Notes: generated by a model from the letters alone, not told the origin. A DNA stretch of 64,000 nt from Escherichia coli (GCF_003018235.1 NZ_CP027438.1); one strand, 5' to 3'; positions 1 through 9,735 are shown, numbered from the stretch's first letter. Made by a program: numbers and translations.

Positions 1-1
1 A

Positions 2-217
2 GATGTTGATAAACGTTCATTTATTCAGTCCAGTATGCTAAAAAATGGCAGTACTCTTGTTCTGGCGGGATATGAACAGAAACGTAATGAAATCTCAGAT
101 CAAGGGGTCGGTACTCCAGGCTTTAAGTTACTTGGAGGCAGCCGTAATGGTTCTAAAACAAGAGACATTATGGTTATCTGCATAACTCCTAGGGTTATAG
201 ATATTGGAGGCAGCTAA
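2..217 (+). CDS. bfpB: Type IV pilus secretin, C-terminal fragment (BfpB-like); 5' end lies outside the window
   Basis: Open frame from window edge to TAA at 215-217; secretin-like C-terminal tail; sits directly upstream of BfpC/U/D/E/F/P-like genes in bfp order. Confidence 0.5.
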
Positions 218-1463
218 CATGTTACGCCCTGATTTAGATAGTTCGAATTCATTGCTTCCCGGCGTTCTGTGTATAAATAAGAAAAAATATGCAGTTAATC
301 TATTGTGGAATGATGTACCAGATGATAAGCAGTATAAGTCAATTATAAAAAGTCGACTTAAATTGTTGGGGAGTGATTTATATGCTATTAATCGTAATTT
401 AACTGGCAGGCAGTATGCTATAGCTGACAAAAATTCAGGGCACCGGAAAAATAATTTTGCTTTAGCAAGTTGCATTGACAATAACGGTCGTTCTATTTGT
501 GCATTGTGTCAGCATGAAAATATTTGGTTATTGCTGGCTATAGATAATAATGGCTATGTCATTATGGATAAAGCCAGTTATGACCAAAATGATCTCATAC
601 AAGAATTTTATTCCATTTACAACCAAAGTCGTTGGGATGACGTTGTTTGTCCTGCTGAGTTAGGTATAGCTGAAAGTTCTGAGCAGCCTATCTATGCCAT
701 TATAAATAAAAAGGGGGTCAAATTATGTTCTACGGGTATTGAACAATTTTATCCACTGTTCGTTATTGGCTCTGTTTGTATAGCGTGTTCTTTATTAGTA
801 ATAGTATTTAAGGATGCAGTAGCACCAGAGGAGGAAAAAACGGTTATTGCTGTTGATTCACCTCCCCCAGAAGAAATAAATGTGCCATGGGGGGGGCATA
901 GCTTACCCTCTGATTTTGTAAAATCATGTACTGATAATGTAAGCAGTAAATATCTCAAATCATCATCAATTCCGGGTTGGAATGTTGAACCAATGGTCGT
1001 TTGTGATGATTCAGGAAAGATATTTTTATCTGTAAAAAAAGATTTTGGACTCAGGATCTGGATAACTAATGGTACGTATAAACAATTCTTTGTAGGAGAC
1101 TTACCTAAAATAGAGAATATTAAGGATACATCAGCTGATATATCATGGCCATTGAGTCCTAATCGATATGAAAAAACGAAACTACAACCGGCACAAGTTT
1201 TATCAATGCTTGAGCCTCTTGATGATATAAAAAAATATATTCAGGATACATTTGAATATTATTTCATTTCTGTGCAATTTGATCCTGAACAAAATGAAAA
1301 TGGCAACTACTTTAAGAAAGTTGGTTTCCGGATATCATTACAAAATGAACCTACGATAATACTTCCTATTCTAGCCAAGATAAAAAATTTGGTTATTGAT
1401 AGGTGTATATTTGATGTGGCAAATGGTACCTGGGAAGTGAAAGGTACTTTTTGGGGTAAATAA
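204..1463 (+). CDS. bfpC: BfpC-like bitopic inner-membrane pilus biogenesis protein
   Basis: 419-aa ORF with one central hydrophobic segment; size and position (after secretin, before small periplasmic protein and ATPase) match bfpC; AT-rich. Confidence 0.5.
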
Positions 1464-1465
1464 AT

Positions 1466-1993
1466 ATGAAAGTAAGACAAATAATTTTATTATGTTTATA
1501 TTCTGTTATATCACCAGTTTGTTTTGGTTCGGTTAGTGCTGACAACAATATTGTACCGGACGTCCAAAAACAGAGTGCTGAAGAGTATAAGAATTCAGAA
1601 AGTAATGCTGCATTAGAAAGTAAACAACAAAGTGCAAAAGAAACTCAAAATTCTGAGATCTCCATATCTGATGAATATCAAGAGGAGCTTGAAGCCTTTA
1701 AAAAACTACAGATGGATAATATACGACTTAAGTTACAGGTAGAAAATGAAAAATTATCTCAACAATCCGGAATCAATTCCGGTTCTGTAAAGTTAGTCTA
1801 TATCTACTCAACATCGACTAAGGGAAGGGTTGCGGAGGTATTAGGAGGAGGACTCGGATTAAGAGAAGTACGAGTAGGAGATCATTTATATGATGGACAT
1901 ACTGTGCAGGAAATAGGAAAAGATTACATCCGCTATGTTTCAAATGATGGCAAAGAAAATTTACTGAAGCTTTTATTCCTCGGACAAGAATAG
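1466..1993 (+). CDS. bfpU: BfpU-like periplasmic pilus assembly protein
   Basis: 175 aa with N-terminal signal peptide (MKVRQIILLCLYSVISPVCFGSVSA); position between bfpC-like and ATPase gene. Confidence 0.5.
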   Translation: MKVRQIILLCLYSVISPVCFGSVSADNNIVPDVQKQSAEEYKNSESNAALESKQQSAKETQNSEISISDEYQEELEAFKKLQMDNIRLKLQVENEKLSQQSGINSGSVKLVYIYSTSTKGRVAEVLGGGLGLREVRVGDHLYDGHTVQEIGKDYIRYVSNDGKENLLKLLFLGQE

Positions 1994-1999
1994 TCAAAT

Positions 2000-7427: not shown

Positions 7428-8030
7428 ATGAGTCCTTATATGAAGCAACAACATGGTATGGTTCTTCTTGAGGTTGTTATATTTCTTATACTGATATCCT
7501 TAGGGTATATTGGATGGATGAATGTGAGAAAAAATATATCTGAATTCGATTATGCGATGCAGGTAACCAGAAACTTATGTTTTTATAAAGAAAAGTTAGG
7601 TCAGTATATTAAAAATAATGGCATGTCATCAACAAGCGAAAAAGAGGTGACTTTTTCTGATCTAGGTATTAGTAGTTCATCAGGTTATCCAACATCATAT
7701 CCTGAATTTGATATGAAATTATACATCAAGGGCAAGTCAGGATATATCGTCTTATTAAGAAATAATAATCTCGGTATTTATTCAGAGCTAGACTCAATTA
7801 CCAGAATGCTTATAAATGCTGCGGCAGGTTTTTTGTCTGTTTCACTTTTCCCTTTCAATGGGGCCCCAAAAGATATTAATTTTAATAAAAACTCAAATAT
7901 ATCAGGTTTTGATGGGTACTATACAATGAAAGGAATTGACCTCAGTAGATACAACAGAAGTGATGTTATCGCTATTGTTATGGTTCCGGAGACATTAACA
8001 CCATTTCAGGAATGTTATTATGGTTTCTAA
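7428..8030 (+). CDS. bfpJ: Pilin-like protein (BfpJ-like)
   Basis: Prepilin-type N-terminus MKQQHG/MVLLEV with Glu at +5 and hydrophobic helix; likely start at M5 (7440). Confidence 0.55.
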   Translation: MSPYMKQQHGMVLLEVVIFLILISLGYIGWMNVRKNISEFDYAMQVTRNLCFYKEKLGQYIKNNGMSSTSEKEVTFSDLGISSSSGYPTSYPEFDMKLYIKGKSGYIVLLRNNNLGIYSELDSITRMLINAAAGFLSVSLFPFNGAPKDINFNKNSNISGFDGYYTMKGIDLSRYNRSDVIAIVMVPETLTPFQECYYGF

Positions 8031-8619
8031 ATATAATGAGAAAGGAATTGGTCTGATTGAGGGAGCTTTTGTCTTAATGTTATTCTGTTTTATATTTACC
8101 CTTTCAGTATATTATATTCACCTGACAATGATTGTATCCAAATCTTTATCTCTCGGACAGACAATGAATATGGTTGGGAATCAGATAGAATTAATCGTAA
8201 AGTCTGGTAGATGCGAATGCGAATTAGCAGATGATACGTGCCGGCAATGTCTTAAAAGCGAGATTTCTAATTCTGATGAAATAAACAAACTGAATGATTC
8301 TTCTTTATTGAGAGTTGCTGTGCGTAGTTTAATAACTAAAGCTGGAGTGGGTGTTCTTATATATCCATCAGAGCTTGCTACAAAAAAAGGTACTTTTTTT
8401 ACATCTCTTGATGAGATTTATTTCACTATTGCAGGCACAAGAGAAAAAGCTGTAGTTATAAATCAAAATTCAAGTATCACCACCCCTAATAATATAAGTC
8501 TTGTTTTGGGTAATATTACTGATAATAATAAAAAAATATTAAAATTATCAGATTTTGGAATCGCAACAACAGGCCCAAACTGGATGTATCCCGGCATGTA
8601 TTTTGAAATTACGCGTTGA
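8020..8619 (+). CDS. bfpK: Pilin-like protein (BfpK-like)
   Basis: Prepilin-type N-terminus EKG/IGLIEGAF with hydrophobic helix. Confidence 0.55.
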   Translation: MVSKYNEKGIGLIEGAFVLMLFCFIFTLSVYYIHLTMIVSKSLSLGQTMNMVGNQIELIVKSGRCECELADDTCRQCLKSEISNSDEINKLNDSSLLRVAVRSLITKAGVGVLIYPSELATKKGTFFTSLDEIYFTIAGTREKAVVINQNSSITTPNNISLVLGNITDNNKKILKLSDFGIATTGPNWMYPGMYFEITR

Positions 8620-8640
8620 TGAATGAGGGAGTTATAATTA

Positions 8641-9060
8641 ATGATTTCATATATATATATGCTACTAATTACAGTCATCGGTTATCTATGGCAAGGAATT
8701 GCCAAAGAACAGGTTGATTTTTTTAAAATGGCATCTAATAATACTACTATCAGTATGAAATATGATTACCTTTATACAGCTATAGTTAATGCAGAATCAT
8801 TATGCGGAAATAGCAATAGTAGTTGTTCATCTGGAATGAGTGTTAATTTGCCAAATTATAAGTTTTCTCATACGGCGAAAGTTTGCAAATATGACAGTGT
8901 TTTTTATGCATTTTATAATGATGCTATTTTAACACAAAAACCACCAGTATCTCTGGCATCTGATGCAGGTTTTTCATTGATATCTGTTAAGGATGTTCCT
9001 GCTATTTGCAAAGATAGCAACAACACTAATGAGGACAATTATGCATTGAAGAAAAACTAA
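8641..9060 (+). CDS. bfpL: BfpL-like small membrane-anchored pilus biogenesis protein
   Basis: 139 aa with N-terminal hydrophobic anchor; position after the pilin-like genes. Confidence 0.4.
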   Translation: MISYIYMLLITVIGYLWQGIAKEQVDFFKMASNNTTISMKYDYLYTAIVNAESLCGNSNSSCSSGMSVNLPNYKFSHTAKVCKYDSVFYAFYNDAILTQKPPVSLASDAGFSLISVKDVPAICKDSNNTNEDNYALKKN

Positions 9061-9105
9061 CCACTTATCTTTTTCTGAGTTTATTATAAATCTGAGGTAA
9101 TATTT

Positions 9106-9735
9106 ATGTTATTATTTTCTAAGTACAAAAAAGACAGTAGAGGATTGAGTCTGATTGAGGCATCAATGGTTCTGGCTCTTTCTGCTATTGTTGTTTCTGG
9201 AGTGCTTTACTATTACAACAATGCTTCAAGTAACCGGAAACTGGTGGAAGATGCTAAGACAATTCAGATGGTGATATCAACAATCAGAACACTGTATGAA
9301 AATCAGGGGCCTACTGTAAAATTGGACGCTGGACCTGTCGCTAAAGCAGGTAATTTTACTACAACAATAAAAAATACAAAAACTCACATCGTTATGCCCA
9401 CTGGTGAAACTCTAAACATTATTGATGGTACATCACTGGGTACTCGGATTTATGCTCTGGACTTCTATACCAGCGATAAGAATATATGTTCCCATTTGGC
9501 ATCTATAAAATATGGAACATCTCACGTTGCGACAGAAATTGTTGCTAACAATGGAAACGTATCGTTAGTTAAGGATTTACTAGCAAAACCTGCTGTTGAT
9601 CGCTACCTAACTGTAGATAAAGCTGCATCAGAATGCTCAAATAAAATTGATTCCGGGGGGGGGATGTACGAGTTTATATGTTATTTAAAGGATAGTCAGA
9701 GATTAGAAGTATTCCCCTGCAGAATTATGTCGTGA
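9106..9735 (+). CDS. Type IVb prepilin, bundlin-like major-pilin paralog
   Basis: Leader MLLFSKYKKDSRG then LSLIEASMVLALSAIVV (Gly at -1, Glu at +5); C-terminal Cys pair (ECSNK...FICY); putative SD GAGG upstream. Confidence 0.7.
   Translation: MLLFSKYKKDSRGLSLIEASMVLALSAIVVSGVLYYYNNASSNRKLVEDAKTIQMVISTIRTLYENQGPTVKLDAGPVAKAGNFTTTIKNTKTHIVMPTGETLNIIDGTSLGTRIYALDFYTSDKNICSHLASIKYGTSHVATEIVANNGNVSLVKDLLAKPAVDRYLTVDKAASECSNKIDSGGGMYEFICYLKDSQRLEVFPCRIMS

Follow-up and report, generated by a model that had tools for sequence, protein, structure and literature searches.

The aggregate-forming pilus (AFP) and the bundle-forming pilus (BFP) are the adherence organelles that define atypical enteroaggregative Escherichia coli (EAEC) and typical enteropathogenic E. 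coli (EPEC), respectively. AFP was described in aatA-positive E. coli negative for the aggregative adherence fimbriae (AAF) (Lang et al. 2018, PMC6279748). Its genes, afpAGBCUDEFPHIJKL-afpA2 plus afpR, are carried by aat-positive pAFP plasmids of atypical EAEC and of Shiga toxin (Stx)-EAEC hybrids (PMC6279748); a second paper gives the order as afpAGBCUDEFPHIJKLA2 (PMC8923075). Among its members the afp operon is ~95.6-98.6% identical in nucleotide sequence, and the last gene, afpA2, is a close homologue (~60%) of afpA. Pili and adherence were lost on deletion of afpA, of the operon or of afpR and were retained on deletion of afpA2, the role of which was called unclear (PMC6279748). The present analysis concerns 64,000 nucleotides of E. 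coli DNA (GCF_003018235.1, NZ_CP027438.1), a whole stretch referred to below as the window. Positions 1-9735 carry on the plus strand a compact run of genes that extends from the end of a secretin gene through a bundlin-family prepilin gene (the 3' pilin). An extra 3' pilin in a BFP-like operon is not new in itself, this being the published architecture of AFP. The new point is modest: the extra pilin belongs to a conserved, uncharacterised second class of pilins that is also found on AFP plasmids and on the EPEC adherence factor (EAF) plasmid.

A pilus operon related to AFP

The genes were identified one by one by BLASTP against the BFP proteins of pMAR2 and against the AFP proteins (Table 1). 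One-to-one correspondence with both sets was supported for C, U, D, E, F, P, H, I and J. AfpK was the sole significant match of the K-position prepilin, the BLASTP comparison with BfpK being not significant. Neither BLASTP nor tblastn related the L-position protein to BfpL or AfpL; within the lineage its gene is 74% conserved with a ratio of nonsynonymous to synonymous substitution rates (dN/dS) of ~0.2. NCBIfam, which has no BFP-specific models, returned only generic families of type II secretion systems and type IV pili, and no match at all to the pilins or to C, U, P, I, K and L. The BfpU-like protein had no match in Pfam, NCBIfam or PDB sequence searches. An earlier note, made from the sequence of this DNA, had read the run as a bfpB-to-bfpL layout. 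The order from C to L was found in the window as claimed, while bfpB lies essentially outside it and L is positional only. The further reading of the run as a BFP-like type IVb pilus operon with a PilT-like retraction ATPase was confirmed by BLASTP, by TIGR01420 and by PilT structures, the ATPase being 69% identical to AfpF and 58-59% to BfpF. An A24 prepilin peptidase (Pfam A24_N_bact and Peptidase_A24, detected on the identical gene of assemblies L009-L012), a GspE-type ATPase, a GspF-type platform protein and a secretin are all present, the secretin only partly within the window. The prepilins show the type IVb features, namely a class III leader, Gly at -1, Glu at +5 and a first residue other than Phe, and the leaders of I, J and K follow the pattern G/xxxxE, the slash marking the cleavage site.

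The start of the operon lies beyond the window and was found in relatives. Only three of 5,426 complete E. coli genomes matched the window operon by megablast, at 99.8, 85.6 and 80.8%. They are CP076711, a plasmid of E. coli O158:H23 with 99.5-99.8% identity to the window operon, and two diverged relatives, cM8a plasmid p2 (85.6%) and pECOR29 (80.8%). The 5' end of these operons consists of a major pilin gene, a TcpQ/BfpG-like gene and the secretin gene. The 5' pilin of the relatives matched the bundlin structure 1ZWT at 6.6e-38. The secretin segment translated from the window has the same sequence as the C-terminal part of the CP076711 secretin (559 aa), which belongs to the PilN-family type IVb secretins (TIGR02520, 2.5e-81) and is 61% identical to AfpB and 47-49% to BfpB. 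The bfp-type order is thereby seen from A-G-B in CP076711, cM8a and pECOR29 to C-L in the window. Extension upstream had been proposed in the earlier note as a way of learning whether a 5' pilin gene exists. The 5' pilin-G-B start was found in near-identical CP076711 and in both diverged relatives; since this start is of the bfp type, the operon type stands. Most differences between the CP076711 record itself (L001, L016 and L017) and the window are indels in homopolymer length, and many annotations of this record are marked as frameshifted. Its gene calls, for example that of a 176-aa 3' pilin, are unreliable, and homopolymer frameshifts of this kind, spread throughout the record, are typical of long-read error.

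Canonical BFP was ruled out by protein identities of 21-61%, by the lack of a megablast match to EAF plasmids and by the absence of perB and perC; tblastn found no homologue of PerB or PerC in the window. AFP plasmids gave no megablast match to the window operon either. Canonical AFP operons were picked in the plasmid collection with the primers published in the AFP paper. The primers afpB_fw, afpA2_fw/rv and afpR_fw/rv match loci L005, L007 and L008 exactly or nearly and have no match in the window or its relatives. Canonical AFP was ruled out by these failed primers together with protein identities of 27-78%, a diverged regulator and a 3' pilin that is not AfpA2. Judged by its genes, the window operon is a plasmid-borne sister lineage of AFP that occurs in many E. 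coli assemblies. Full-text searches of the literature turned up no description of it. Further BFP-like operon lineages are present on E. coli plasmids (L013, L014, L015 and L020). In some of these the I-J-K-L genes have been moved to an upstream position, some have a LuxR regulator or an ANR (Aar-like) gene, and in some L is separated from the 3' pilin gene by a dispersin gene.

The 3' pilin and a second class of pilins

The last gene of the operon encodes a prepilin with a leader of 13 residues, MLLFSKYKKDSRG/LSLIE, with Gly before the cleavage site and Glu at position 5 of the mature protein; the N_methyl motif was detected. The product matched Pfam Bundlin (PF05307) at 2.3e-8 over residues 39-188 and is 30-33% identical to BfpA. 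Its AlphaFold model (predicted local distance difference test score, pLDDT, 82.5) had the type IVb pilin PilS and the TcpA filament as best structural matches. An extra full-length, bundlin-like type IVb prepilin after the last biogenesis gene, as proposed earlier, is thus confirmed by Pfam Bundlin, N_methyl, leader and fold. The mature protein of 183 residues is a single pilin domain of major-pilin size, with no large additional C-terminal domain of the TcpB/CofB kind. Its N-terminal helix is the same as that of the major pilin of the lineage at 23 of 24 residues, Glu5 being kept. Across the lineage the alpha-1 helix and the last C-terminal strand are nearly invariant, and the loops at residues ~66-76, 86-96, 107-113 and 146-186 are highly variable. 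Cys128 is invariant and Cys177 nearly so. The C-terminal cysteine pair claimed in the earlier note holds for these two residues, while the extra cysteines in the C-terminal tail of the window product come from a frameshift. The dN/dS of the 3' pilin among three diverged lineage members was 0.18-0.21, with lower values for the 5' pilin (0.06-0.09) and the core machinery (0.04-0.13); the class is under purifying selection.

A neighbour-joining tree built from the globular domain only and bootstrapped separated the pilins into two classes with 99.8% support. Class 1 comprises all 5' pilins and AfpA2; class 2 comprises all 3' and orphan pilins. AfpA2 grouped with AfpA (96%), and the 3' pilin of the window grouped with the orphan pilin of pAFP and the 3' pilin of L020 (99.6%). 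Identity of the 3' pilin to AfpA2 is 28-34%, and to AfpA, BfpA and the 5' pilin of its own operon it is 30-36%; it reaches 45-51% with an unnamed pilin of AFP plasmids annotated as a hypothetical protein. The globular domains of class 2 are basic (isoelectric point, pI, 8.8-9.7; 21-24% charged residues), those of class 1 having a pI of 4.8-7.9 and 9-15% charged residues. Basic, highly charged class-2 domains were seen in the window, L002 and L008, where the major pilins of the operons range from acidic to neutral. By tree and identity the 3' pilin is assigned to a separate, older pilin class and is not an orthologue of afpA2. The suggestion of an alternative major pilin or antigenic variant was not supported, in view of 33-36% identity to 5' pilins, a separate class, motifs of its own and a basic charge. 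The afpA2 gene is a recent duplicate of afpA with 81% DNA identity. Because AfpA2 is a class-1 duplicate, the afpA2 knockout is uninformative on second-class pilins. The pilin-class result redirects the question raised in the AFP paper on the extra pilin from afpA2 to the second-class pilin.

Class-2 pilins are also found outside the window lineage. In canonical AFP plasmids and in pMRE600-1 an unnamed class-2 gene, orthologous to the 3' pilin gene of the window, is located just downstream of afpR, and in the AFP papers no mention was found of a third pilin gene beside afpR. The orphan pilin of pAFP was considered as a 5'/3' chimera; this was rejected, as it showed no DNA similarity to afpA itself or to the regions upstream of the 5' pilin genes of the window lineage. 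EPEC's own EAF plasmid also appears to carry a second-class pilin. The intact open reading frame (ORF) on pMAR2 was matched by tblastn at 8e-17, better than bfpA, and is conserved in other E. coli. It lies ~3 kb beyond perC on the opposite strand, and the classical EAF probe, located with published primers at ~20894-21964, extends over its 3' part. The sequences that we take to be primers EAF1 and EAF25 match pMAR2 exactly at 21437-21458 and 21813-21833, and their amplicon overlaps the class-2 ORF. No mention of this pilin-like ORF was found in full-text literature searches, which did not cover the pMAR7 and pB171 sequence papers.

Other class-2 genes follow the H gene in L013 and the L and dispersin genes in L020, and the class is retained in at least four operon lineages. 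The family of the 3' pilin itself forms ~50 clusters at 90% identity in draft assemblies, with intact 195-196-aa versions that are 64-99% identical; wherever context was read, its members were at the 3' end of the operon. The 3' pilin is best regarded as an old major-pilin paralogue, one that generally goes along with BFP-family operons.

The window copy was compared with four other assemblies of the same operon (L009-L012), which are 99.9% identical to it. In the I-like gene the window has an extra A in each of two runs, 7058-7063 (A6) and 7279-7286 (A8), by which the gene is split into three frames. Removal of one A from each run (starts 7058 and 7279) restores the 196-aa I-like protein of L009-L012. 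These two indels could be real inactivation or homopolymer sequencing error. A poly-G tract in the 3' pilin gene also differs between isolates. The G10 allele encodes 196 aa with the conserved C-terminal strand (...DVRVYMLFKG); in the G9 allele, of 209 aa, this strand is replaced by an unrelated tail of 23 residues. The exact 209-aa product was found in four other contigs, one with an intact I-like gene, and 196-aa forms in more than 130. Since four other contigs have it, G9 is a real allele and not just an error in the window. A mutational hot spot and a phase switch are both conceivable for the tract, which is confined to one sub-lineage.

Possible roles of the 3' pilin

The 3' pilin is probably an accessory subunit co-assembled with the major pilin of this AFP/BFP-family sister operon, a reading held with somewhat better than even confidence. 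The L gene and the 3' pilin gene are 45 bp apart; the gap has a ribosome-binding site, GAGG, and nothing resembling a terminator. The 3' pilin gene would be transcribed as the last of the operon. Its product would then be cut at G/L by the A24 peptidase of the operon and inserted into the same shaft as the major pilin, as the match between the two N-terminal helices and the shared Glu5 suggest. Such a subunit would add a basic, antigenically variable surface to the filament, could modify bundling or adherence, and would not be needed for building the pilus. A wider and more tentative proposal, for which we see perhaps one chance in a few, is that BFP-family pili generally, EPEC BFP and EAEC AFP included, have a conserved and overlooked basic second-class pilin with the size and N-terminal helix of the major pilin. 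If co-assembled, such a pilin could be a real determinant of bundling, aggregation or receptor binding.

Several observations count against an accessory subunit of the shaft. A promoter and terminator scan around the 3' pilin gene performed no better than on shuffled sequence. The orphan class-2 copies of the AFP plasmids and pMAR2 are far from any operon, so linkage to an operon is not obligatory. Three minor pilins are already encoded in the operon, and no biogenesis role is obviously vacant. The window copy, finally, combines a frameshifted C-terminal strand of the 3' pilin with a broken I-like gene, and this copy of the system may be non-functional if the indels are real.

The major-pilin size of the 3' pilin and its near-identical alpha-1N helix would also suit a reserve alternative major pilin, swapped in via recombination or a regulatory switch so that the antigenicity or binding of the pilus is altered, with the poly-G tract as an on/off element. 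The 5' and 3' pilin genes share an identical 20-nt stretch, TCTGCTATTGTTGTTTCTGG, which would allow recombination between them. In pECOR29 a chimeric gene (L003:20506-21087) joins the 55 bp upstream and the leader of the 5' pilin at TCTGCTATTGTTGTTTCTGG to a 3'-type body. The hypervariable loops of the 3' pilin and the presence of both G9 and G10 alleles in independent assemblies fit the same explanation. However, the chimera is the expected remnant of a whole-operon deletion between direct repeats and so looks more like a dead end than a switch; one such case was found. The poly-G tract is restricted to a single sub-lineage, and the difference between G9 and G10 may reflect a mutation fixed in one clone and not a reversible change. 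The motifs and the charge conserved within the class point to a distinct, non-interchangeable role, and a reserve major pilin is considered unlikely. As an observation in its own right, the chimeric gene is a second pilin gene of pECOR29, and the region concerned (L003 20452-21087) includes the 3'-type downstream flank.

A low-abundance minor pilin of the tip or base, acting in initiation, triggering of retraction or receptor binding as TcpB and CofB do, is about equally improbable. In TcpB and CofB the N-terminal segment is likewise nearly identical to that of the major pilin with Glu5 kept, and the 3' pilin gene is conserved beside the machinery in several lineages. The 3' pilin nevertheless has no extra C-terminal domain in its 183 mature residues, I-, J- and K-like minor pilins are at hand in the same operon, and the class-2 copies of the AFP and EAF plasmids are distant from theirs. 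That the 3' gene is a decaying, functionless duplicate, and the whole finding a plain canonical BFP or AFP, seems very improbable. In its favour, deletion of afpA2 had no phenotype in AFP strains (PMC6279748). Frameshifts affect the 3' pilin gene in the window and, in the leader region of the assembled sequences, its counterparts in CP076711 and pECOR29. Those of CP076711, however, resemble long-read homopolymer error. Decay is also at odds with a dN/dS of ~0.2 across three diverged members, with the intact versions in ~50 clusters and with the persistence of the class in its several operon lineages. Identity, primers and regulator all set the operon apart from canonical BFP and AFP. Selection and conservation largely refute this explanation. 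The co-assembled accessory subunit is the preferred reading.

Plasmid surroundings and comparison with described systems

Downstream of the operon, a transposase remnant separates it from an AraC-family regulator gene (Table 1). This regulator is 59% and 48% identical to its counterparts in cM8a and ECOR29, respectively, and 30% to AfpR; the 37% identity to PerA concerns the C-terminal (DNA-binding) half only. The plasmid carries its own diverged set of EAEC accessory genes, comprising the AraC regulator, an AatD-like gene, aatPABC-like genes and a weak dispersin-like ORF. The true start of the AatD-like ORF is probably further downstream, and the dispersin-like ORF had no Pfam match. The rest of the window is an IncF plasmid backbone, rearranged relative to CP076711. 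Its features (20985-22786; 33346-36770 on the minus strand; ~41000-45300) are IS100, a peptidase-domain ATP-binding cassette (ABC) exporter with its HlyD partner (bacteriocin-type), toxin-antitoxin pairs and a truncated tra region.

Table 1. Features of the window and class-2 pilin genes on other plasmids; the identity columns give the window lineage against AFP and BFP proteins, and a slash in a leader marks the cleavage site
Feature	Location	Strand	AFP	BFP	Evidence or remark
5' pilin			63%	52%	
G			44%	35%	
B: secretin 3' end (last 72 codons), BfpB/AfpB-like	2..217	+	61%	49%	cut at window edge
C: BfpC/AfpC-like (PilO2-type) assembly protein	204..1463	+	48%	33%	PDB 3VHJ BfpC N-domain 5e-25; BLASTP AfpC 3e-134, BfpC 3.6e-65
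U: BfpU/AfpU-like protein	1466..1993	+	37%	29%	BLASTP AfpU 4e-26, BfpU 9e-7
D: extension ATPase, BfpD/AfpD-like, GspE family	2000..3580	+	66%	60%	BLASTP BfpD E 0; 66-68% AfpD, 60% BfpD; GspE/PilB NCBIfam
E: inner-membrane platform protein, BfpE/AfpE-like, GspF family	3587..4651	+	78%	61%	BfpE 1e-166; 78% AfpE, 61% BfpE; GspF/PilC families
F: PilT-like retraction ATPase, BfpF/AfpF-like	4658..5638	+	69%	58%	TIGR01420 pilT_fam 1.5e-34; PilT structures ~2e-21; BLASTP BfpF 8e-133
P: prepilin peptidase, A24 family, BfpP/AfpP-like	5628..6374	+	60%	48%	BfpP 3e-79; 60-61% AfpP, 48% BfpP
H: lytic transglycosylase, BfpH/AfpH-like	6362..6775	+	68%	55%	BfpH 2e-52; 68-69% AfpH, 55-57% BfpH; Pfam SLT on identical gene
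I: minor prepilin	6839..7431	+	31%	24%	leader MSKLRQNG/LTMVE; BLASTP AfpI 4e-13, BfpI 7e-5
J: minor prepilin	7428..8030	+	34%	25%	leader ...QQHG/MVLLE; BLASTP AfpJ 4e-24, BfpJ 2e-4
K: minor prepilin	8020..8619	+	36%	26%	leader ...NEKG/IGLIE; BLASTP AfpK 1e-17
L: gene with N-terminal membrane segment	8641..9060	+	27%	21%	assigned from position only
3' pilin: second-class bundlin-family prepilin, 209 aa here	9106..9735	+			Pfam Bundlin, type IVb pilin fold
Poly-G tract in 3' pilin gene	9655..9663	+			G9 here, G10 in most isolates
IS3-family (ISKpn37-like) transposase remnant	9826..10547	-			megablast ~97% to ISKpn37 copies on many plasmids; broken ORFs
AraC-family regulator, positional counterpart of AfpR and PerA	10986..11774	-			AraC-family NCBIfam matches
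AatD-like acyltransferase ORF	11883..13349	+			tblastn AatD 29% over 248 aa, 1.5e-23
Diverged aatPABC-like exporter genes	16669..20362	+			tblastn AatP 42%, AatA 29%, AatB 41%, AatC 60%
Second AraC-like gene	59234..60043	-			
Dispersin-like ORF	62458..62823	-			weak tblastn to Aap, 33%, E 2e-5; signal peptide ...AFA/G
Class-2 pilin, unnamed, canonical AFP plasmid	L005 15007-15579				just downstream of afpR
Class-2 pilin, unnamed, canonical AFP plasmid	L008 2018-2593				just downstream of afpR
Class-2 pilin, unnamed, pMRE600-1	L006 15995-16582				orthologue of window 3' pilin
Class-2 prepilin ORF, unnamed, pMAR2 (E2348/69)	L004 21677-22255	-			intact, 192 aa, annotated as hypothetical

The PCR markers in current use (afp, afpR and bfpA) would miss the window lineage. 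Since a lineage missed by these markers nevertheless has a complete pilus, Aat and dispersin-like module, strains that carry it may be misclassified.

Among described pili, the heteropolymeric pili of Streptococcus sanguinis formed by PilE1 and PilE2 and the pilE/pilS recombination of Neisseria belong to type IVa systems. They offer an analogy only, with pilins of equal size, near-identical N-terminal helices and recombination, the last seen once here (pECOR29). These systems are unrelated to the window operon by sequence. TcpB and CofB, of the toxin-coregulated pilus (TCP) and colonization factor antigen III (CFA/III), are second pilins of type IVb systems that mimic the N-terminal helix of the major pilin, as the 3' pilin does. 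They are much larger, have extra C-terminal domains and are encoded directly after the major pilin gene; the 3' pilin of the window, in contrast, is major-pilin-sized and encoded at the far end of the operon. AfpA2 resembles the 3' pilin in being the product of the last operon gene, of the same size and from the bundlin family. It is 54% identical to the 5' pilin of the window lineage, however, and far less similar to the window 3' pilin.

BFP of typical EPEC (EAF plasmid pMAR2, NC_011603.1) shares with the window system the 14-gene order bfpA-G-B-C-U-D-E-F-P-H-I-J-K-L and a bundlin-like major pilin. Of these genes, A, G, B, C, D, E, F, P and H are clearly homologous, whereas U, I and J show weaker homology. 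Unlike the window operon, the bfp operon stops at bfpL without a 3' pilin, and the window system is linked to aat genes and has no perB or perC. The system nearest in sequence is AFP (D 66%, E 78%, F 69%, 5' pilin 63%). The two systems differ in that their proteins are only 27-78% identical, with 30% for the regulator against AfpR and 29-60% for the Aat proteins. They have in common the gene order, the PilT-like ATPase and a bundlin-family pilin after L; on the IncF plasmid of the window, the AraC regulator and the aat- and dispersin-type genes are present as diverged analogues of those of AFP.

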